The notes under the pieces are model-generated. The model was not told where the DNA came from. It was given only the letters and a program-made list of their open reading frames with translations, and searched no databases. A program made the position numbers and the translations under genes. From NCBI GenBank assembly GCA_951804945.1, contig OX638149.1, positions 86,552,001-86,616,000 on the forward strand: DNA of 64,000 bases, in the 5' to 3' direction. Of the stretch, positions 40,781-63,158 are shown in pieces; the first letter of the stretch is position 1; every line of letters starts with the position of its first letter. Origin of the DNA: Podarcis cretensis (lineage: Eukaryota).

Positions 40781-43700
40781 TCCACTATGTCAACACCATT
40801 ATCCTAGTCCTCGTTGTTTATCTTACGAGGTTCCCAAGGGCTCTTTCAAATTCATAATCTCGGTCGCCCTTCCCACTATTGGATGACCTGGGCCGTTGCT
40901 TTTGCCCATTTTGCAGACGGGAAGTCTGAGGCTGGGAGATCCTAACTTGTTCCAGGTCTCCTAGTCAGTTTGCCTGGGTTTGTTGGTACTCGCTGTGCTT
41001 CCTCAGAGCCCCCCCCCCCACTCCTTTCCCCGGCTCTTGTTCTTCGATATGTTTAGCTTAATTCTATTGTCCCTTTAATCTAGTTAGCAAAAGCAGTGTA
41101 AAGAAATAAAGCTGAAATCCTGTGCGGGCTTACTTGGGAGTTAGCATCATTGAGCACAATGGAATTAAATTTCCAGGTAAATTCCCTGTCTTTCTAGTCA
41201 TGACCCTCTCGTTCTCCAAGGTGGTGCTTGCTCTATTCTGTACACAAAATACACATATACATGCTTCCTTTTTTCCCTCTTGATCCGACCTGTGCCTGTG
41301 GGATTAGACTACTGAACAGGAGACACAATGTTTCTGAGTTCCTGTTCAGTCTCCTGTTCTACCTAGACTACTTGGTTCCTGTGCAACTTTAGTTTGGGCT
41401 GATGCTGCCATTTCAATAGGGATTAGTGTAGTGCTCTTGTGCATATTCGTATAGCAGGTATATTGTGAGAAGTATTGGTGTATGATGAAGGAGGATGCTG
41501 ACACCATGTTACTCTACGACATTAGTGGGGTATCTTTGTTCCACAGGCTCAGTTAGGCCCACCAGATCCTTTCAGCCAAGCCACCCACCTGCCCTACATC
41601 TGCTGTCTATTACAGACAGAGCTTGGATTAAAGGAGCTTTTTCTACGATATTCCTTGCACAGGGCTGCCCAAGCACTGGCTATCAATGGATTGTCAGAGC
41701 TTGGGAAATTCTGTGCACAGGTTGTACATAATCAGCTGTGAGGCTGCCAAGCGTCATGCATAGTGCTCCACAAGACTCAGTGATCAGCTAATCATCACTA
41801 AACCATATAGGCAAAAATGGGTCATCTGTTGTAATTGTGATGCCTGGTGATTGATAGGTAGACAGCCCCACCCACCTGTCAAACTTGGCCTGTGGGGTGG
41901 GTAGGAGAGAGAATGATCTGGACAGGTGACTGGATGCATTTTCTATTTGTGCTCTCCAGCAATCCTAGTACCAGTACAGTGTAGTATAGTTTATATTATG
42001 TACATCCCCTTATTCTTGGGTGTTCTCATTTTTATTTATGTAATATATATTGTATTTATATTTTGCCAATTTCCCAGGTGGCATTCCAGCCAAGCACTAA
42101 CCAGACCCAGATATGCTTTAGTATGTTCCCTGTAGCTTCAGAATATGGGTGTTGTAGGCATGTATAGAAACATCAGTGTATAATTAAATCTGCATCTTTT
42201 AGCTTATTTATTTATTTGTTAAAATTTCCATTGTTATGCACCCCATTGTTATTTAGACTGCAAGCTCTATTTGTTTCTGTTGGGGGTGTTGTTTTGTAAA
42301 GCACAATGTACACTGATTTGTGCGTGCATGTACACATTTATAAGTTTTCTTACCAACCCGTCACCAGAAACACCCATGGGTGGTTACAACAATATAATCA
42401 TATAGTTATTAAAACCAAGTAAAATGTTTATGGTTATAAAACGTAGAGCAGGAAACCCAACCAAAACAGTTTAGATTCACCATAAGAGGAGAGTGCCGCA
42501 AAACAATATACCTTTACTGTCAAAGCCTAGGTCTTTTCAGCATATGGCAGAAACTACAGTGAGGGGGAAATATGTTTGATCCCCCGCTAAATTTGCCCGT
42601 TTGCCCTCTGACAAAGAAATGACCAGTCCATAATTTTAATGGTAGGTTTATTGTAGCTGTGAGAGACAGAATAACAACAGGAAAACCCCCAGAAACCCAG
42701 AAGACAAAAGTCAGAGATTGATGTGCATTATAATGAGTGAAATAAGTATTTGATCCCCTATCAACTAGCCAGATGTCAGGCTACCTGGTATCTTCACTGT
42801 ATGTAAGGAGCTGAGATTAGAAGCACCTGCTGTAAGGGAGACGTCTTACCTGTAATCCCAGCTCGTTACAGTACCTGTACAAAAGACACCTGTCGACAGA
42901 AGCAATCAATCCAGCAGATTCCAAAGTAGCCACCATGACCAAGTCCAAAGAGCTGTCCAAGGATGTCAGGGACAAGATTGTAGACCTGCACAAGGCTGGA
43001 CTGGGCTACAAGACTATTGCCAACTAGCTCGGTGAGAAGGTGACAACAGTTGGTGCAATAATTTGCAAATGGAAGAAACACAAAATAACTGTCAGCCTCC
43101 CTCGGTCTGAGGTGCCATGCAAGATCTCATCTTGTGGAGTCGCAATGATCATGAAAACGGTGATGAAGCTACCCAGAACTACACGGGGGGAACTTGTCAA
43201 TAATCTCAGGGCAGCTGGGACCATAATAACCATGAAAACAGTTGGTATCACACTACGCCGTGAAGGACTGAGATCTTGCAGAGTCCGCAAGGTCCCCTTG
43301 CTCAAGACAGTACATGTTTGCCAATGCACATCTGAATGACCCAGAGGAGAAAGTGTTGTGGTCAGATGAGACCAAAATCGAGCTCTTTGGCATCAACTCA
43401 ACTCGCCATGTTTGGAGGAGGAGGAATGCTGCCTGTGACCCCAAGAACACCATCCCCACTGTCAAACATGGAGGGGGACATATTATGCTTTGGGGGTGTT
43501 TTTCTGCTAAGGGGACAGGACACTTTCACCGCATCGAAGGGACGATGGACGGGACCATGTATTGTCTAATCTTGGGTTTGACAAAAATCGAAAGTCTGTG
43601 AAGGGAGCTGAAGGTTCGAGTAGCTACACATCAGCCTCGAAATCTTACTGACTTGGAGAGGATCTGCAAAGAGGAGTGGGACAAAATACCTCCTGAGATG

Positions 43701-46700
43701 TGTGCAAACCTGGTGGCCACCTACAAGAAACGTCTGACCTGTAATTGGCAACAAGAGTTTTGACACCAAGTACTAAGTCATCTTTTGTGAAGGGATCAAA
43801 TACTTATTTCACTCATTATAATGCACATCAATCTCTGATTTTTGTCTTCTGGGTTTCTGGGGTTTTTCCTGTTGTTATTCTGTCTCTCACAGATACCATA
43901 AACCTACCATTAAAATTATGGACTGGTCATTTCTTTGGCAGAGGGCAAGTGGGCAAATTTAGCATTGTTTGCATCAAATACTTTCCCCCCTCACTGTATA
44001 TGACAAAAACATCTGGGAAGTAAGTTCCACAATTAGAGGCTGCTTCAGGGAAAGCCCTCTCCTGGGCTGCCATTCCCCACACTGAGGGTAGCAGAACTTC
44101 CAAGAAAGCCCGCTTTGCTGATCTTAGTAACCAGTATAGTCTGTTGGGAAGCTGTCTTTCAGGTATTTGGAGCCTAAGTCACTTAAGGCTTTAAACAGCA
44201 ATGTGAGAAGAATGTTTTGCAGCAGCAGTCCACAGAGAGTAGCTGCTATGCAAACAATGCTGGGAGGAACTGATAATATATTTTCTCAAGTGTGAAAGCC
44301 TATTTGAAAACTGTTTTAGGATTTTCCCAGGTGCATGTAAGAATGGTTTTTATTATTTATTTACTCGTGTTTCATACCCTGCAATTTTTAGCCCTGAAGC
44401 CTTTTCAGGCAGCTTATAAATAAAAGCAGCAAAGAATAAGTGCACAACTGTAAAATTCCATAAAATACATTACAGTAGAAAAACAATATAGCATCACTAT
44501 CCAAAAAGCTTAATAAAGAACCAGGTTTTCACTGCCTCTTTCAATGGTTTTCCTGAGGTGGGAGTTCCAAATGATTGTGTTGAGCTGAAAAGGCCTTGTA
44601 AATTCTTGTTGATTTATTTGCTGTAGCCTTTCTCTGATATTGATTTTATTTATCTGTCTGTAAGGGTATTGCCAACCTAGCAGTTCGAAAGCACGTCAAA
44701 GTGCAAGTAGATAAATAGGTACTGCTCCGGCGGGAAGGTAAACGGCATTTCCGCATGCTGCCCTGGTTCGCCAGAAGTGGCTTGGTCATGCTGGCCACAT
44801 GACCCGGAAGCTGTACGCCGGCTCCCTCGGCCAATAAAACGAGATGAGCGCCGCAACCCCAGAGTCGGTCACAACTGGACCTAATGGTCAGGAGTCCCTT
44901 TACCTTTTTTAAAGGGTATTTATAAACTAGTAACACATAAGAAAAATGTCAAGTTGATTGTGTTACAGGCTATCCCCAGCTAATGGGGTCCAGGAGGAAG
45001 GACGTGGTGTTTTGTAGGGTGGTGGTAAGGGGATGGATTAGAGATGAATAGAATCAGATGAGTGATTTTGTGCTGTAGTAGCACATTTAAGGTCAGGCAC
45101 AATCATTAAAACACTGTGTGGAATTTGTGTCTTCTCACTTGAAACAGCACAGAAATTACCCAGGTGGAATGTCTTAACACTCCGGCAACCACATTCTACA
45201 TTGCGTTCAGTAACAATGATTACTCTAACTGGGGGCAAAGATTGTGCTTTCCCACAACAAAGTGTTATGATGCAAGTGCTATGAAAATCAGAGAAGGTGA
45301 CTAGATGTCATGCAGCTGTTTATACATTGCACAGTAAAATGAATCTTCTGGCAAGTAGCTAAGAAATTATTAGAATGGTGTAAAGATGCCTCTACCAAAA
45401 ATGATGTTATGATTGTAATTGGCCAAAACTGAAGTTATAGTTAGTTTTGCTCTTTTTAGCAGCATGCTGCTGTCTCTAAAACTAATTAAAAACAATAAAA
45501 AGCTAATTAGCATAGGGGCTTGTGCCCTAAATAGAGAGTTTCCCTATATCTATATCTCATTCCAGTGTGTCTTAAGTATTTTTTCCCCTATCCCCTAGGA
45601 TTGCTAGTTAAATATGTATGCTAATTAAATTATATACCGTTTTACTCTCTTTAAATGTTGCTTTTGTTTTAGTTATGGTAGAATTTTTGCTATTTCTTCA
45701 AATTATGGCAAATATCTAATGATGTTGTATTTACTGTCATATGTTTCTGCTGTAGAACTGAATTTTTGAACTTGTGTTACCTTTGTTTTAGTTTTTGTAA
45801 TTTTGTATTTAATGCTTATTTTACCAATTTAATGCTGTTAGCCACTTTTAGGGGTTTGTTTTGAATTGAAAAATACAAGTGGGGACCCACAGCAACTAAT
45901 GTAGTGCTGTATTTAGTTCAATAAACAAATTGCTGGTTTAAAGCTTTTAAAATTTGTTGGGGGGAACTTTAATTGCTGGACCTGTGAGTTAAAAGTAGGT
46001 ATTCATTTTGGAGCTTTTTTGATTCACAAATGTTACAGTAATAGAAAATTAAAAATAAAGTGTTAAGGATGGCATTTCTAAGAATGGTTGTATTCAGATG
46101 ATCATATCTTAACTTAGTGAGCTGAGATATGAAGAAAGCTTTTGCCTACTCATGTGACCCTTTTTCTCCTCTCTTCATGGTATGAGCAAACCAAGAAGGC
46201 ATCAACTATAGTTTCCAATTTCATCTGTTTCTTTGCATTTGATTTTTCCAGACGAATTTGAAGTGACTGAAGAGGCTCCAAGGACAGCCCCAAACCCACC
46301 TCAAGCTAGCATGCCTCTTGGGCCTGTAGCTGTCAAACCAACAGGTAGCAAATTTCTCAATTCCCCTTTTAGTGTACTAACTTAATCTGCAGTTATAAAG
46401 GTCAAGTTATTGGTATACAGTGGGTGTGTACCAATCTTAAGAACAGTGTGAAAGCAACAAACAAATCCTTGTGAGAGAAGGATGCTGTCATGGACTGGCT
46501 GGATGCAGAGGAGTAGTCAGAGGCACCAGCTGGGGAACCCCCAACGGAAGAAGGCTCAGAGCCTTCTTGGTGGTGGGACGATGACGAGTGGTCCGAGGGA
46601 GAAGAGGGAGCAGACTGAGAGGAGGAGGTGTCGGAAGATGAAGAGGCAGCAGGGTTTAGTGAGCAGGAAGAGGCTGTGGCAGAGTGCAGTTCAGACTCGG

Positions 46701-49700
46701 ATAGGAGAGGAGGGGGACCAGGAGATAGAGATGAGGCAGGCTGCTGAAGAATGCAGGCAGTTTCCCCCGCCTGCTGCAAGTAGCTCCCTTTCCCCTTGGT
46801 CTCCCAGAACATGCAGAGAAATTAAGAGAGCAGAGCAACGAGAGACAAGATGATGAAGCTTTAAGCTGCTGGGGAAGGAAGGGTGGGGGAAACCTTAGAG
46901 AGCGGTGGGAAGACAGATCCTCAATCCTTGGAACTGCTTCATTGGGGCAAGACCTACTGGGAAGGGTAGCTGTGGCCACCAGGACTGAACTGTTTTGTTT
47001 CTTTGAATAGAGTTGACTTCACTGACATCATTTGCTATATTCACTCACATCATTTGCTATATTGTTTTATTGTTGACCTCTGCCTGACTCCAGCTCCTGA
47101 CAGATGCCTTTAGTGTTGTTTATTAAACAGACGTTTTGTCTTGTGTTTTACCTTAGAAATATCAGGGGTACTTTACTGTGGCTTGTTGCTCATTTTTAGA
47201 GGGGGCTGATTGGATTTAGAGATTATAGAAGGTTGTAAACATTAAGAATTTTGGTCTCAATGCCATCTTTAATATGAAAAAAAAAACCTCAGTCTATTTA
47301 TGTTTGACTGAACTCGTCATTTCAGGACTATGGGACGACTACTTGCTTTTTCAGATTTTTCCATGCAACCATTCCTTGAAAATTAGGGCAGATGAGCTGT
47401 TTATTATTACAGGAAAAACCTGGAAAGCATCTTTCCAGTGTTTATTTCACATTCTAGTGATAAAGCAAAGACAACAGGACTGTCTTTTGTGGATAAAAAA
47501 AGAATTTTGACATTAGTGCAAGGCACTCTGATGTTTCTGACAGATAATTTATTCTGTGCAGTGAGGTGAGACTTGGGAAAGCAACACTAGTGCGAGTGTC
47601 TGCAAGACTGGTTGTATCCAACGTTGCTGTTTCAGTAGCACAGCTGACTTCCACTTGTACAATGAAACTTTCTCCTCCTATCCCCTGCAGCCCCCTGCAC
47701 ATCCTCAAAAACTGGAGGACTCTCTGGAGCAAATTTTCAGGGCTTCTTGGCCTTTTGGCTAAGATCAAGTGTAGGTTATTTTAATACATTATCTCAGTTA
47801 TGGTCACATTGACTTTCTGTTCTAGGTGGCTTATGTTTACTTGGCGCTTATGAAGACAGCGATGAAGAAGACAGTGAGATGTCTGAGAAACCAGCACAGT
47901 CTACAGATGCAAATGGCAATAATTCAACAGACATTGACAGTACCCTGGCCAACTTCCTAGCGGTTAGTAGGAATTCTGTTTTGGTTCATTAAATAATTAA
48001 TCCTGTTGGGTAGAACTTGGGTAGAACGTACAGATATTCACAGCAATACATTACAGTTTCTATGAAAAGGTGTACAACCTTAGACTGATGGATAGATGTT
48101 TTAAATCTTTGATGTATGGGTTGAGCAATTTCTCTTTCTACGTTATTACCAAATATTTAAATGCTCTTAATTTTTTGAGTCAAATGATGTCCTGTTTTAT
48201 CTTACTTGTATTTTTAAAGGAAATAGATGCAATTACAGCACCTTCACAGCCTGCTGAGAACACTGTTCCCTCCACTGCTCCACCTCCAACTCCTCCACGC
48301 CCAGAACCCAAGGAGTCTGCTTCCAGTCTAGTTTTGGCAACTGCAAATGGAACAGACCAGGTGGCTGAGTGGCAGTATGACACTCAGTGCTCCCTGTCAG
48401 GAGGTGAGCTCCATGTAATAGCTTGTGCTACTACACAAGCTTGTATACTAGAGGCATTGCAAGGGTTGATAACCCATGAATTACCATGTCTTTTCTAACT
48501 GAAAGCAATTTGGTTGTGGTGTGAAGATGAAAGTTGGGAGCCTTTTTTGGCTAATCTGCCCAGGTCTATGACTTCAAAGGATTATTAAAGGCAGCTGATG
48601 AATGTTGGGTGGGATAACAATTGAGAGTGATGAGAGAGGATATAATTGCAATCTTCTCTAGGTATATAGAGCAAAGCTGAGGATACTCAGATTGGAGAGG
48701 ATGCTCACTGAAGTCTTGCTTTCTTCCTATAGTTGGAGTGGAGATGGGAGACTGGCAAGAAGTTTGGGATGAAAACACAGGCTGCTATTATTACTGGAAT
48801 ACTCAGACTAATGAGGTTACCTGGGAGCTGCCCCAATACCTTGCAACACAAGTTCAGGGCATCCAGCATTACCAGCCCAGGTAAGAATGGCACAGAAGAG
48901 GAGAGTGAATTGGTACTTTTTTAGTTTCCCTTGCTGAATTTGCTTTTCTCTTAGTTCTGTGGCAGATGCTGAAGAAAACTGCCAAGTGGTTGCAGACCTA
49001 AGCTCCCAGGGAAAAGGTGGTGGTGCTACAGCTGCCAGCAGTGCTGGACGGAGGGCAACTCTTGTGAAGCGTGAATTGAAGAAGGTTAGTATTTGCCTGA
49101 CTGGCTTAAAATAGTTGTTTTTGAATGGAAATTTAAGAGAAGAAAAAACAGCAACCCCACTTTTCTCTATTATATTTGTTTTGCACTGTGTAGGCATCTG
49201 ATTTATTTTTCCAGATGGCAAGAATGAACTGCATGCACTTTAGAGCAAGAACTCCCGTGCAGAGCATGTTCACAGCATAAGTCATATTCTCGGGGTTTTA
49301 TAAATAAATTATAGACAGATCTGTCTTGTTGCATATGGATAATTCAACGGAGTCATAAAAGGATGGGAGGGATTGGATAGCTCAGTGGAAGAGCACAGCG
49401 TTTGTATGTATAAGTTTCTCAATTTGTTTCTGGCATTTCTGTTTAAAAGGATATCAATTACTAAGTCTGGAAAATAGGACTTTTATGCTCTGAGCAATTC
49501 TCATCATCTCATTGGAAGCTCTGATTCCAGGGCCTTTGTTAAATGCTGGGCACACACACTAGCAAACTTTGCAGAATGAGAACTAGAAACTTGTTTTTCT
49601 TTAAGGAGGTTATTCATGTTCTCTGTGACTGATTGCAGGAAGCTAATGATTTAGTGCAAAATCATATTGCCTTCACAGGAAGTGAATGAAGGTATTCAGG

Positions 49701-52700: not shown

Positions 52701-55700
52701 TTGTGCATTGTGACTAGCACAAAATTATTGACCCCTTGCTTGCTTTACTTCTGGCAGTTTCAGATTGGAGAGCTGGCCAACATGTTGATAAGCAAGCTGG
52801 AGTTCTTGGGCATCAGTAGACAATCCATCTCTAACTTCCACATGCTACTGTTGCAGACTGAGGTAACGAAAGTTTACCTTTTATTGAAAATTAATCATAG
52901 GGAGCCAAACAACTGGCAGCATTGCAGTGTGATAGGAATCTAGGAAGTTTTAAGTATTATGGCATGGATAACAGGCTTCCTCTCCCTCATTCCTTCCCGC
53001 TCCCTCCCCCTTGGCCCTCAAGCGGAATGCTTTAGTCCAGTAACGTATCTGAGGCTTTCTTGATCTATATGTAGTTCTCATCATGTTCTCTGTCATTAGT
53101 GCTGACTCTTGTATTAGTGCTACTAACACTGGGTGAGATTCATCTAACCAGTCTTGATTTTCCTTGTGCAACTGGGCTTCCCAGCCCTCTCCCTTGCATG
53201 CCCCCTGTGCCCTCCAAAATTGGCACAGGGGGGTCAGTAGAACCCACAGAACAGCATACATTGGGTTAGGAGAGGAGGAGATGGTTCTATCTGGCAAGCT
53301 GTCATGTGTGTGCAAACACAACAACTGACGTTGAATTCCACCCACTGTGTAGAACTGCAAAGTTAAGTGGAAAGTGATGTGCATGAGACCAATTGTCTCT
53401 ACAGGTTTTTCATTATTTTTCCTTGCCTGCTTGGTATAGACCCGTATTGCAGATTGGCGGGAAGGAGCTCTCCAAGGAAACTACCTCAAACGCAAATTGC
53501 AAGATGCAGCTGAACAGCTAAAACAGTATGAAATAAACGCCGCCCCTAAAGGCTGGTCCTGCCACTGGGACAGGTACGCACTCTTCTCCCCTTTTCACCT
53601 TTCACCTTTGACATCTCAGACATGATTTGTGACCATCACCACCTGCCGACGTGCCGTCATCTGTCTGGAGACTGAGAGCAGCTGCACTTAGCGGTGCTGA
53701 GCGGGCAGAGAGCCTCTGGCACATACAGAGTTTCAGCCAGCCACAAAAATTGGAGAAATATAAAGTCTGTGTTAAGTGTGTTGAAATGGATTTGATTCCG
53801 CGATTGGACAGAGCTGGTGTTTACTCTTGAGTGTAAATGCGCTAAGGAGGGCGGGCTTGGGGGGTCGCGCATGCGAGAGCTCTGTGCACATTGCAGGATC
53901 TCAGGAACTCCGCTCCCAAGTAACGCCTGTGTCCTTATGGAAAGCTCCCTCACTGAGGATCTCAACGAAGAACAAGATAACTGTCTCCTGCCAGCAGGTC
54001 AGACCAAACTATTTCTTCTTATATTTGGCTTTCTTGATTCTTTTTGTTTATTTGAAATCTTTGCTCTTTTGTTTTTCAGCTCCCAGATCCTCTCCCTCTC
54101 AGTAGCAATTCACTATGTCTGACACCAAGAGTATCATAAATGTGACTGCAGCAGTCCATGGGGGAGCAGCCATCTTTCATAAATTGGGCTGTTTCTCTTT
54201 TTGCTATTCTGGAAGGAAATGAATCCTGAGACTACCTAAAAAGTCTATTTCCTAATGCATCCTTGAACCTTTAATTGCACATCAGCCACAAGCTGCTTCA
54301 ATAACCCTCTACTTTTAGAGTGGAGGGTCAGGGCTGTGATCACAGAGCCAGCAGCGCAAACAGTTTGGAGTAAGCCCATCTTGCAAATCCTTCCTCAAAG
54401 CTGTTTGTTGCCTTTGTGAACAGCAGTCCTACTGTAAGAGGTTCTTCCTGTGAGAGCACTCCGCTGTCGCGGGAGAGGACTATATCATTGTGTCAGTGCA
54501 GGGGCGAGAGCGTAAAACCTTGTTTTCTTTCTTGTGATTTAGGGATCATAGACGCTATTTCTATGTTAACGAACAATCAGGCGAATCCCAATGGGAGTTC
54601 CCAGATGGGGAGGAGGAAGAGGAGGGGCAGATCCTAGAGAATAAAATGGAAGCTCTTCCTAAACAAGGACTAAAGGAGAAAATGGAGTCTGGTGCGGAAT
54701 CGTCTGATAATACTACAGGTACTGGACCTTGAGGGTTTGCTAAAAGAAAGTTAATCCAATTTGGAATAATGTTTTTAAGAAGGTAGGCTCCTTGTTATTA
54801 CTTCTCGTAAGTATATTCAATGCCCAAAGGCAGTTGCTCAGAAATCCTTCTTTATATTGCAGTATTCAGCCAGGTGGAGATGAATTGAAATTAGTGCATT
54901 ACTTGCAAAACAGTTTTCTGTACTAGGATGGGGAACCTGCTGGCCTCCAGGTGTTGAGTGCCCATCAGCCACAGCTAACAAGCCCTGTGGTCCTGTGTTA
55001 GGACCTGTGGTCCTGTGTTTAGCAATATCCATAGTGCCACAAGTTCCTCACTCTCATCTTTACCCACCTCTAGAGATATCACTGCCGATTGTTATGCATG
55101 TGGTTCATATAGCATACCCGCTATGCCATATTGACATGGGAAGTATAAATTCTTTCTGCTTGTATTGTTTTTCCAATTTGGTTTTTAACATTGGGGGCTG
55201 GTTAGTGGGATCATTGTAATACTTTTCCAAGGAAGTTTTTCTTCTCTGAAAAGAAGCAGCATAATAGTGGAAGGAAAGTTATAAGTTGGGTGGATAGTTC
55301 TTGCAGGTATGGCGTAATTAAAAAAAAACCTACATGTTCTTTCTCTCTCTCTCTCCCCCCCCCCCCCCATTTTTAGGGTCTCTTCTTAAAGAGCCTCTTT
55401 CTAGTCAAGCTGCAGCTACCTCTCTTGTGCCTCTCAGTCCATTTTGGACTGTGCTCCAGCCCTCTGTCCCTGTACTTCAGCCCCCTTTACCTTTGGAAAT
55501 GCCACCACCGCCACCACCCCCTCCAGAGTCACCCCCTCCCCCTCCCCCTCCCCCACCCCCTCCCCCACCAGGGGAAGATGGGGAAATACAGGAAGTAGAG
55601 ATGGAGGATGATGGAGATGAGGAACCACCAGCACCAGGAACAGAGGAAGATGCTGTACTGAAACCTCTTCTCCGACCAGCAGTTGCCAACAGCCAAGTAA

Positions 55701-58700
55701 GTTAGTGCAGATGGACCCTCTAGCAGTTCTATAAAAGCTAGTATCAGGCGTGGATTGTATGCAGCTTTGACCTGTGAATCTTCTGCATTCTTGCATTTTA
55801 TAATGTAAAACTGTTGTAAAACTGTCTTGCCCTCTTTGCCGCCTGTAGCATAAACTTTCTACTACAATCTTCTATAGCAGTCAGTAAATGAAAAGTAGTT
55901 TGTTTCTGCCATTCAAGTTTTGTGCCAAAGTCCCTTGTAAAACGTGTGTCAGAAAATGGATTTGTGTGACCCATATACAATAAACATGCTGTGATAGTGA
56001 TGTTGCAAAGAGAGAAGCCAACAGAATGATTTCAGATAGAGGAGATGAATTTTGCTTTTTCACAAGAACTAAAATTGCCCGTCAGATAATCTGCAGTGAT
56101 TTGATTTGTTAGTGTAAAAGCTCCTACACATCCAAGACAATTTCCCTGAAACAACATGGAATTTTATAAGAAAAGACATGCATGTTCCAAAAATGTACAG
56201 AGACTATTTAAAAGAACCAAACTAATTGACATCTATCTGCTTCCAGGCCAACTCTGAGGCCAACGTATCTGCACCTCTCTCCACTAAATCTCTTAAGAGA
56301 AAAGCTTCTGAAATCAGTGCTGGACTGGTGCAACGAGCAGCAACCATTGGAAGCTGTCCAGTGCTTTACGGGCAATCAGTCATAGGTGTTGGTGAGTAAC
56401 ATCCACATCCTTCTTCTTAGCTGCTTGATATCCCTGGAAAAGTGTTTTGGAAATAATTCCCATCCCCCCCCTTTGTGTATACAGGCCCTCAGACCCCAGG
56501 GGTGAGTTTGCAACAGAGTTTCCTTGGAGTAACGCAGCCGGCACTCATGAACTATTCTGAGTGTAGTGTGCCTGTTGGTCTTTCTGCCAGCACCACACAG
56601 CCAGTTCCTACACAAGGAGCCGCTCCTGCCACTAGCACTACAGAACAGCTGTCGCCGCCTCCACCGCCTCCTCCACTGTCCCCACCGCCACCCAAAACAC
56701 TACCTCCAGAGAAGTCAAAGAAGCTTAGGAGAGCTGGCAAGGTGAGTACTTAAATTTGTACTTCCTGTCGTTGTGCATGCCAGAAATTGGACAAGCTTCA
56801 TATAGGTTGAAATGTGTGTTATTTTACTCTGCTAGACTTTAGAACTGATACATCTTGTTTGACAATAGGTACAGAATGAGTAACTTGGCAGCTTCAAAAC
56901 TGGAAGCTGTTGGGATTTCAGAAATACATTAGAGAAGAAGGTGCTCTTTTTAGGTCTTTGAGTCCACCAACTCCCCTGAGGCCTAATCACCTTAGAGATA
57001 CCAAGCTGGTTCTGTTTGTTTTCTTGTTTGGGGGCCATTGTGGCTTTTGTGCTGGGATGTGTGCTCTGCTAGCCAGAACGCTTTTTATGATCTACTCTAA
57101 TGTGAGATTAAGCAAAAAGAATGGGTAAAATCATTGTTTTCCTTCCTGTCTTGCCTACCTTATTCCTAACAAGAGTGAGAATGAAGAGTTCATGGAGGCC
57201 TATCTCTAGTCATCAGGGTAACATGCTAAATATTTCCCCGCAGAGGAAAAAAACCAAGACGAAGATGCCCTCTCTTGTAAAGAAGTGGCAGAGCATTCAG
57301 CGGGAACTGGATGAGGAAGAAAACTCCAGCTCAAGTGATGAGGATCGGGACGTGATCTCACAGAAGAGAATTGAGGAATGGAAACAGCAGCAGTTAATCA
57401 GGTATGAGAGAGACAGCAAGATACGGTCTGATAGCACCCCACTCCTTGCATCGCCCAGTGTGATTTGCTTTAGGTAAATGATTCCAGATTTCTGTGCAGT
57501 GTCAACTGTCAGCCCATGGTTTCTGGTTTAAGTGACTCGTGCCACTGCAGGGTTTAGGTTGGTCTATTTGTAGCTGTTCCTTTTTAAAGGAAGATTGGAG
57601 AGTCTTGTCATGTTTTCAGGGGCATTGGGCAAAACTGAAGATGGGGAATGTAACACATGCAGAACAGAAGTGGATATGGGGGTTTCAGTAGCAAGCTTGT
57701 AGGCCTAATTTCCAGAAGTCACAGCACAACCTTGGGGGAAACCTTGTATGTGAGGCAGAAGAGAAAGAAATGTTATGTACTTGCAGCATTCCTTTAAAGC
57801 ATGGGTGTCAAACACAAGGCCCGCGGGCCGAATCCGGCCCGGCAGACCTCGTCATGTGGCCCGTGTAGCCGCCACCGGCCGTCAGCTGACTACAAAGGAA
57901 TTAAGGGCCACCATGCTTCTCAGATCTCCTTGTAATGTGAGATTCATTATTGGCCTCCTTGTCCTTGTGCAACATACAGGGAAGACTTCGTGTTGATGTA
58001 TACAAATAGCAATGTGTGAGAAAGGGATTTGCGTGAGAAACCACCCTCAGGTTCTATATGCTTCCTGACTTCTGCAGTATAAAATCCCTTTGCCTGAAAC
58101 CTGCCTTATCTTATCATGAGCACATTTTTATCTGTAGCCTGCACAGAAGCTGGCTAATCATGGTGTGTAAAAATGACATCATAAAGCATCTCTTAGTGCC
58201 ATATAATTATGCATTTCCTGAAATATTCAAGAACCAAAATAGCATAGGGCAGATTGCTTCCATAAACTCGGCATTTCTGACTTGTAAAAAAGCTCAATAA
58301 CTTCAATCCCAAAAAAAGGTCAACAACTTTGGTTGGCCCTCACGCATGTTCACTTCATCAAATCTGGCCCTCTTTGAAAAAAGTTTGGACACCCCTGCTT
58401 TAAAGAGTTAGTTTCCTCTTGCATATGAAGTGATTTATTAATTCTGTGACATTCCTTATATGCAGAATGGATTTAATGTGCTATATCATACTATGTATTG
58501 ATAGTGAATGTGGGTGGTACGTAACGCATCCCATCATTGCAAGGATTTATATTTGCACAACAGAACTCCCCTCTTCCTCCCCCCATGTGCCTGCTAAATC
58601 TGTTCTAGGGTTCACTTAACCCTCCAGAAAGATTTGGGGAGGACAGGAACAGGGGAGGAGAGTAGGAAACATTTCCATTGTACAAGCATAAATCTTTGCA

Positions 58701-61785: not shown

Positions 61786-63158
61786 CATTGGAGCCAGCTC
61801 TTAGGGGCTGAGGTCCCTTCAGGCCCCCCAATAAATATTTGAGGGGGGCAGCTCCCCCGCAAAAGTTGATGAGCATTGCCATTCAAATGGTGTCTGTGTG
61901 CTATTGTGATTGATTATGTGGAGCGGGGCTTAACTATCCCCCCATATATTATTATTATTTATTATTATAATTGTTGTTGTTTAGTCGTTTAGTCGTGTCC
62001 GACTCTTCGTGACCCCATGGACCAGAGAACACCAGGCACTCCTGTCCTCCACTGCCCCCCGCAGCTTGGTCAGACTCATGCTGGTAACCTCGAAAACACT
62101 ATCCAACCATCTCGTCCTCTGTCGCCCCCTTCTCCTTGTGCCCTACATCTTTCCCAACATCAGGGTTTTCTCCAGGGAGTCTTCTCATGAGGTGGCCAAA
62201 GTATTGGAGCCTCAGCTTCAGGATCTGTCCTTCCAGTGAGCACTCAGGGCTGATTTCCTTCAGAATGGAGAGGTTTGATCTTCTTGCAGTCCATGGGACT
62301 CTCAAGAGTCTCCTCCAGCACCATAATTCAAAAGCATCAATTCTTCGGCGATCAGCCTTCTTTATGGTCCAGCTCTCACTTCCATACATCACTACTGGGA
62401 AAACCATAGCTTTAACTATACGGACCTTTGTTGGCAAGGTGATGTCTCTACTTCTCAAGATGCTGTCTAGGCCTGTCATTGCCCTTCTCCCAAGAAGCAG
62501 GCGTCTTTTAATTTCGTGGCTGCTGTCACCATCTGCAGTGATCATGGAGCCCAAGAAAGTAAAATCTCTCACTGCCTCCATTTCTTCCCCTTCTATTTGC
62601 CAGGAGGTGATGGGACCAGTAGCCATGATCTTCGTTTTTTTGATGTTGAGCTTCAGACCATATTTTGCACTCTCCTCTTTCACCCTCAATAAAAGGTTCT
62701 TTAATTCCTCCTCACTTTCTGCCATCAAGGTTGTGTCATCTGCATATCTGAGGTTGTTGATATTTCTTCCGGCAATCTTGATTCCGGCTAGGGATTCATC
62801 CAGCCCAGCCTTTCGCATGATGAATTCTGCATATAAGTTAAATAAGCAGGGAGACAAAATGCAGCCTTGTCTTACTCCTTTCCCAATTTTGAACCAGTCA
62901 GTTGTTCCATATCCAGTTCTAACTGTAGCTTCTTGTCCCACATAGAGATTTCTCAGGAGACAGATGAGGTGATCAGGCACTCCCATTTCTTTAAGAACTT
63001 GCCATAGTTTGCCATGGTCGACACAGTCAAAGGCTTTTGCATAGTCAATGAAGCAGAAGTAAATGTCTTTCTGGAACTCTCTAGCTTTCTCCATAATCCA
63101 GCGCATTAATATACTGCTCTATATCTGGACGTCTCAGGTACTCAAGTTGCCACACCTG
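61786..63158. mobile_element. Old hAT-type MITE split by a BovB insertion
   Basis: Perfect 8-bp TSD CTCCATTG at 61778-61785 and 63159-63166; degenerate TIRs CATTGGAGCCAGCT / AGTTGCCACACCTG. Confidence 0.75.
61971..63106 (-). mobile_element. BovB (RTE-clade) LINE, 5'-truncated, with reverse transcriptase ORF
   Basis: ORF 62099-63106: FCFIDYAKAFDCVDH...GVRQGCILSPCLFNLY...NLRYADDTTL...RRIDAFELWCWRRLLRVPWTARRSN. 3' end GGGGTCACGAAGAGTCGGACACGACTAAACGACTAAAC followed by an (AAC)n tail. Frameshift near LMRR (about 62185). Confidence 0.96.

Follow-up and report, generated by a model that had tools for sequence, protein, structure and literature searches.

The window analyzed here is a stretch of 64,000 nucleotides from the lacertid lizard Podarcis cretensis, which carries the gene for FNBP4. 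We modeled this gene as 17 exons that join into an open reading frame of 955 amino acids, with two WW domains, WW1 at residue 187 and WW2 at residue 568; among the best 120 of 324 homologues, the closest named proteins are the FNBP4 of Zootoca and Podarcis, to which exon 7 is 99% identical. As the earlier note on this DNA had proposed, the 969-nt intron 11 (53574-54542) lies in the middle of WW2, and the gene model places the split at CHWDR/DHRRY. The intron and its surroundings contain the following features:

53440..53573, forward strand: exon 11 of the gene model, 134 nt, ending in the first half of WW2 in phase 2, with the donor CAG/GTACGC
53574..53896, forward strand: 5′ half of the intron, 323 nt, CpG-rich (13 CpG, o/e 0.61); 311 nt in mouse and 317 nt in human
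53623..53625, forward strand: TGA, in the gene model the first in-frame stop upon retention, giving a 590-aa product with a 17-aa tail
53897..53997, forward strand: frameshifting cassette exon (poison exon, candidate decoy), 101 nt, with a weak acceptor and the donor CAG/GTCAGA
53998..54079, forward strand: inner intron, 82 nt, with a long pyrimidine tract and a strong acceptor; the mouse counterpart has 87 nt
53998..54542, forward strand: 3′ half of the intron, 545 nt; 560 nt in mouse and 555 nt in human
54080..54122, forward strand: sequence after the inner acceptor, with TAG 54103-54105 met after the cassette and TGA 54120-54122 met directly from exon 11
54543..54718, forward strand: exon 12, 176 nt, carrying the remaining half of WW2; the frame shifted by the cassette meets TAG 54635-54637 and a second stop
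55458..55480, forward strand: internal AGs of exon 13, of which 55459 skips 83 nt and 55480 skips 104 nt, matching frame-restoring joins in bird models

When scored with matrices derived from the 16 donors and acceptors of the lizard FNBP4 gene itself, the inner donor at 53997 and the inner acceptor at 54079 resemble constitutive sites, and the acceptor reaches 11.8, a value equaled by only one other cryptic AG across the 16 introns. Thus, the 82-nt inner intron between CAG/GTCAGA and this acceptor, which had been proposed from the letters of the sequence, is well founded. The same proposal overlooked the acceptor of the cassette, which, placed at the AG at 53895-53896, divides the intron into segments of 323 + 101 + 545 nt; this site is weak (2.5), and 14 AGs of intron 11 score as high. 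The third signal that had been put forward, a CAGCAG acceptor (54421..54426, forward strand; sites 54423/54426), lacks support: its AGs score 1.4 and −2.1, 19 AGs of intron 11 reach at least 1.4, and the peptide that its use would generate is carried by none of the best 120 of 324 homologues. It is probably not part of the module. Hence, the anatomy first described for this intron is right as to the inner donor, the inner acceptor and the stops, but lacks acceptor 53896 and the 101-nt cassette and includes an unsupported CAGCAG site.

Direct splicing of exon 11 to exon 12 is the only route that restores both WW2 and the open frame. In the gene model, retention runs into TGA 53623 to give a protein of 590 aa, and the junction of exon 11 with 54080 leads to TGA 54120 and a 587-aa product, both as anticipated in the earlier note. 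The 101-nt lizard cassette is itself open in frame, and its stop is reached in exon 12 (TAG 54635), with five junctions at least 55 nt downstream, a position typical of a poison exon. Whether the intron is retained, the cassette is included or the inner acceptor is used, the frame soon meets a stop that is followed by five or six further junctions, and in all ten modeled alternative routes the distance from the stop to the last junction is at least 961 nt. Because of this position, and because the corresponding mammalian RNAs are nuclear or NMD-sensitive, it is improbable that the WW1-only protein of 590 aa is what the module chiefly yields, although its predicted length and stop were correct.

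The orthologous intron of mammals, as far as it is covered by the accessible parts of the cited papers and their supplementary tables, is divided in nearly the same way, with 311 + 103 + 560 nt in mouse and 317 + 103 + 555 nt in human (Boutz 2015, PMC4281565; for human also PMC12017769), and both halves are on the detained-intron lists of mouse ES cells and human lines (PMC4281565). The human cassette (chr11:47732117-47732219; PMC12017769, PMC13247117), with a stop 22 nt into the exon, appears on a Parra-derived list of cassettes within retained introns that are candidate decoys (PMC12017769). It is classed as an internal cassette exon, and upon UPF1 depletion in HCT116 cells its inclusion changes by a dPSI of +0.42 (adj P 5e-15), with a log2FC of 1.96 for the FNBP4 gene (PMC13247117). 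An additional exon between exons 11 and 12 had been validated in human cells, by RT-PCR (Chen and Zheng 2008, PMC2467489) with primers that, in the part of that source available, map to FNBP4 exons 11 and 12; further, a human junction shifts in muscle after weight loss (PMC12534703), and mouse Fnbp4 RNA is nuclear-enriched 19.0- and 38.4-fold (PMC1800850).

A regulated version of the same event is recorded in mouse neurons, where the accessible tables of Mazille 2022 (PMC9627664) list two retained introns of 87 and 560 nt with a common donor between exons 11 and 12; by simple arithmetic, the upstream block of 548 nt in that row equals 134 + 311 + 103. The PIR of the 87-nt intron (chr2:90767956-90768042) falls from 0.91, the value after transcription block, to 0.54 with bicuculline, a change labeled "more spliced", and the 560-nt event is "uncertain" with both stimuli (PMC9627664). 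When the mouse primers given in that source are placed on the lizard sequence, they match the cassette at 19/26 and the inner intron at 25/27 positions, the next best match in the window being 18/27, and the primer for the mouse 3′ part has no lizard match (13/24 locally). The exon-exon forward primer maps within the cassette. For the semi-quantitative forward primer, DNA alignment slightly favors 54204 (28) over the cassette start (22); it probably also lies at the cassette start, since its translation, SGSNYS followed by a stop, fits both the ISGS start of the bird cassette and the position, 22 nt inside the exon, at which the human cassette stops. With one forward primer in the cassette and the other probably there as well, we infer that the "spliced" product from mouse neurons contains the poison exon, which suggests that the validated activity-induced intron excision would not yield the productive mRNA. 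The parts of intron 11 are length-matched between lizard and mammals, unlike intron 12, which has 658 nt in the lizard and about 6.6 kb in human. The human intron 12 (6.6 kb, retained) has a second cassette of 100 nt (PMC12017769), and pieces of intron 12 are on both the mouse and the human detained lists (PMC4281565), in the accessible parts of these sources. Lizard intron 12 (54719-55376) displays several cryptic donors, at 54782, 55200 and 55306.

We also recovered the cassette in other sauropsids. Among the best 120 of 324 homologues, which constituted our survey, 91 show the normal join of exons 11 and 12, 21 (20 birds and one turtle) join exon 11 to a cassette at the boundaries of 53897-53997, two, both from birds, terminate with the 17-aa tail of the retention route, and six do not reach WW2. 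The cassette peptides of the 20 birds and the turtle start and end like the translation of 53897-53997, and the retention tail is identical at 17/17 positions in P0264, a contig protein of a skink cluster that joins exons 1-11 to this tail, and at 12/17 in the two birds. In the penguin model P0207, the cassette is spliced to the inner acceptor, with the same short tail and stop as in the corresponding lizard route. No cassette was found in any of the 19 squamate representatives or listed cluster members, which is expected if such forms contain stops but lends the module no support. Six contig ORFs called through the TGA match 53622-54320 with 84-93% aa identity in most segments and 71% in one, falling to 54-63% further 3′, where frameshifts confound the comparison; we regard this profile as weak support for the module. 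As evidence of splicing we disregarded two read-through models, P0067 and P0092, as well as P0157, a model from alligator. In P0157, a 10-residue in-frame insert between the two halves of WW2 corresponds to the 3′ end of the cassette (53970-53997) read in another frame, which has a TAA in the lizard; in the parrot model P0250 the cassette is nine codons shorter at its 5′ end, suggestive of an alternative acceptor inside it.

The length of the cassette is 101 nt in lizard and turtle, 98 nt in birds and 103 nt in mouse and human; it is never a multiple of three, with a remainder of 1 in mammals and 2 in sauropsids, and the middle of its peptide differs among lizard, bird and turtle. These non-triplet lengths, the differing remainder and the unconserved peptide point to a cassette that acts at the RNA level.

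Taken together, intron 11 contains a frameshifting cassette set between two intron halves, in the layout seen in mouse and human, and we consider it highly probable that this arrangement is a switch, built of detained introns and a poison exon, that keeps the amount of full-length FNBP4 in check. Mammals and sauropsids share the three internal sites as well as the lengths of the segments. Against this reading weigh the weak acceptor of the lizard cassette, the lack of the cassette in the squamate models surveyed, the "uncertain" class of the mouse 560-nt event, the absence of FNBP4 from the catalogues of unproductive splicing named below, and the bird models, most of which predict a full-length protein instead of a stop. 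The mouse and human orthologues are abundant in poly(A) RNA in which the other introns are spliced, as is characteristic of detained introns; the human orthologue rises upon NMD block, and the position and splice sites of the exon are conserved in mammals, birds, turtle and lizard, as is characteristic of poison exons. Moreover, the Parra-derived table includes the human orthologue among unannotated cassettes that have junction reads within retained introns, by analogy with which the FNBP4 cassette is a candidate decoy exon. By the same analogy with mammals, nuclear detention and NMD are the likely outcomes in the lizard too. The notion of a constrained unproductive-splicing switch, with which the study of this intron began, is accordingly borne out by mammalian detention, the NMD-sensitive cassette, stimulus-regulated excision and the bird and turtle junctions, although the anatomy on which it was built was incomplete. 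Mechanistically, a cassette with a weak acceptor, a usable donor and a strong acceptor 82 nt downstream could capture U1 and U2AF/U2, and the captured factors would then compete with the pairing of the outer sites, as in the decoy exons of SF3B1 and OGT. Signals that alter splicing might thereby change how much of the RNA is kept in the nucleus, how much decays and how much becomes productive mRNA, with the balance possibly being set by FNBP4 itself.

Splicing factors often autoregulate via such exons. An add-on that is compatible with the detained-intron and poison-exon switch, and that we entertain only tentatively, is that the FNBP4 protein promotes recognition of its own cassette, in a negative autoregulatory loop. 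Consistent with this, the accessible parts of the literature describe FNBP4 as nuclear (PMC12159680), and its tandem WW domains and proline-rich stretches are like those of PRPF40A/B and TCERG1 (PMC11079029). However, the activity demonstrated for FNBP4 in the former source is formin inhibition (PMC12159680), neuronal stimulation already shifts the mouse event in the available data (PMC9627664), and the FNBP4 literature, at the level of titles and the starts of abstracts, yielded no report of autoregulation and no paper pairing FNBP4 with "poison exon".

A different fate of the cassette is suggested by gene models from birds. A query made of the bird cassette and the shifted-frame region that follows it returned 43 proteins, all from birds; it returned no crocodilian, mammalian, amphibian or fish protein, in a search that also missed the known turtle form and is thus insensitive. 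Among further cluster members, 43/67 have the cassette and 2/67 variants of it; chicken (XP_040557412.1 and XP_040557413.1), ostrich, emu, kiwi and crows are represented here, and three parrot models rejoin the normal frame seven residues later. Of the 43 bird models returned by the query, 37 regain the normal frame inside exon 13 (36 recognized by script and the 37th, from a cuckoo, by eye), and the remainder comprise three that continue in the shifted frame, two read-through models and one that uses the inner acceptor. The rescued models predict a near-full-length FNBP4 without WW2. For this to happen exon 12 has to be read in two frames: its shifted frame is open in the bird annotation, where only one or two at-risk sites give a 0.38-0.5 chance of an open frame anyway. 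In the lizard, exon 12 is not dual-coding, with two stops in the shifted frame, and the exon 13 rescue is useless since TAG 54635 and the second stop close the shifted exon 12. Exon 13 of the lizard has two more strong internal AGs, 55391 (8.5), which skips 15 nt in frame, and 55437 (9.5), which is frame-shifting.

From these models one could propose that birds turned an amniote-wide poison exon into an isoform switch, with a compensating exon 13 splice, a dual-coding exon 12 and a full-length nuclear FNBP4 that has WW1 without WW2, whereas lizards and mammals send the cassette to decay; in mammals, the "splicing completion" that activity induces in Fnbp4 would then channel detained RNA into the poison form instead of into protein. 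We deem this scenario rather unlikely. The bird isoforms are gene models that might have been copied across species by homology-based annotation and that do not show both events on one molecule. If the bird isoform is real, it would be an example of a poison exon becoming a domain switch.

A broader version of this idea, which we consider improbable, holds that the main output of the module is protein diversity, in the form of a truncated FNBP4 with WW1 alone, for lizards and mammals, or, for birds, of a nearly complete FNBP4 that lacks WW2. The length of the 17-aa retention tail and its stop do stay the same between lizards and birds, and the accessible part of one study indicates that WW1 alone drives FMN1 inhibition and that the 1-629 fragment of FNBP4 resides in the cytoplasm, as NLS1 is located downstream of it, whereby a truncated form would acquire a distinct location (PMC12159680). 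Likewise, the regained frame in 37/43 bird models extends from ostrich and chicken to crows. Set against this, every lizard route satisfies the NMD junction rule, the human cassette is NMD-sensitive in the available tables (PMC13247117), and the middle of the cassette peptide differs between lizard, bird and turtle; the shifted frame of bird exon 12 would stand a fair chance of being open anyway, and the possible copying of annotations and the lack of a tie between the two bird events on one molecule weigh here as well.

The composition of the intron raises a further alternative. Its 22 CpGs compare with five in intron 10 and four in intron 12, in agreement with the hand count of about 20 against 4-5 in the flanking introns in the earlier note; from 12 other short introns of the gene (introns 1, 2 and 16 being excluded, of which 1 and 16 contain repeats or a CpG island edge) about 7.3 would be expected (Poisson P = 9e-6). 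The first 323 nt hold 13/22 of these CpGs, with a GC of 0.51 and a CpG o/e of 0.61, as against 0.27 in the exons of the gene, and near 53800-53875 this half bears GGGCGGG, GCGCATGCG and ATTGG, which we take to resemble Sp1, NRF1 and CCAAT sites. One might therefore read the CpG-rich 5′ half as an internal promoter or enhancer and the cassette as an alternative first exon. We regard this as very improbable: in the models from birds and turtle, exon 11 is joined to the cassette at its acceptor, the ATG at 53937 belongs to the frame closed by the stop at 54635 and is missing from the peptides of those models, and the available human data show an internal cassette (PMC13247117). A DNA-level role of the 5′ half could nevertheless coexist with the splicing module. 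A reading of the sites as cryptic signals that arose by chance, and of the additional isoforms as splicing noise, which the frequency of weak acceptors like 53896 and 54423 in every intron of the gene might suggest, is largely refuted by internal sites and segment lengths kept from mammals to sauropsids and by events that are abundant or regulated in mammals, and we give it next to no credence.

The search of the intron against its own genome gave a single match, with no repeat detected, which speaks against a repeat or duplicated origin and agrees with the previous finding of no recognizable TE. A structured RNA, a snoRNA host or a conserved fold can also be rejected: an Rfam search gave no match at E up to 1, the fold at 53780-54060 is not unusually stable (z = −0.28), and the inverted repeats of the intron are short ones only.

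The class to which we assign this module, a detained intron with a poison exon, is known. The conserved poison exons of the SRSF family are frameshifting, flanked by detained introns and NMD-coupled; the FNBP4 module has the same build, but its autoregulation and a role of FNBP4 as a splicing factor are hypothetical. The nearest relatives are the mammalian FNBP4 events themselves, which are already present in supplementary tables: in the accessible portions of these sources (PMC4281565, PMC9627664, PMC2467489, PMC12017769, PMC13247117) they concern the orthologous intron, with the same three internal sites and near-identical lengths, the difference being that the lizard cassette of 101 nt is open, with its stop in exon 12, and the human one of 103 nt has its stop 22 nt in. 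Decoy-regulated retention in SF3B1 intron 4, OGT intron 4 and ARGLU1 (PMC6097662, main text) likewise features a conserved cryptic non-coding cassette with weak sites in a retained intron that becomes visible on NMD block; in contrast to these, the FNBP4 intron measures slightly less than 1 kb, inclusion of the human cassette is high (dPSI 0.42), and a nested intron of 82-87 nt directly follows the cassette donor. The bird models parallel the dual-coding isoforms produced by non-triplet splicing, in the part of that study available (PMC13247117), in reading exon 12 in two frames, but they require two compensating non-triplet events known from annotation, and the lizard stops block this route.

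FNBP4 is absent from the supplements of the Mironov 2023 catalogue of unproductive splicing (PMC10123112) and from the searchable supplement files of Neumann 2020 on temperature-dependent AS-NMD (PMC7726792), and it goes without mention in the main text of Parra 2018 (PMC6097662). In the openly accessible literature and supplementary files that were searched, we found no dedicated study of the FNBP4 module or the bird isoform and no cassette-deletion test of FNBP4; nor did the accessible parts of the sources contain a text that joins the intron 11 events into one module or reports them beyond mammals. What the present analysis offers is to unite scattered table rows into one compact module of less than 1 kb and to add lizards, birds and a turtle to the mammals in which it had been recorded. 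Its compactness makes it an easy minigene for studying what share of the RNA a decoy exon and a short nested intron assign to detention, to decay and to translation.

Several other features of the window deserve brief mention. Judged by eye, a possible acceptor at 49638 (TTGCAG/GAAG) lies 40 nt upstream of exon 7. A CpG-rich segment in intron 16 at ~57800-58400 looks like a short DNA-transposon remnant and lifts the CpGs of that intron to 21. Intron 1 contains, at ~42550-44000, what by eye we take to be a decayed Tc1/mariner-like element, with terminal repeats and broken transposase-like text, and the segment at ~61990-63100, downstream of FNBP4, is presumably a LINE-like reverse-transcriptase fragment, likewise recognized by eye.
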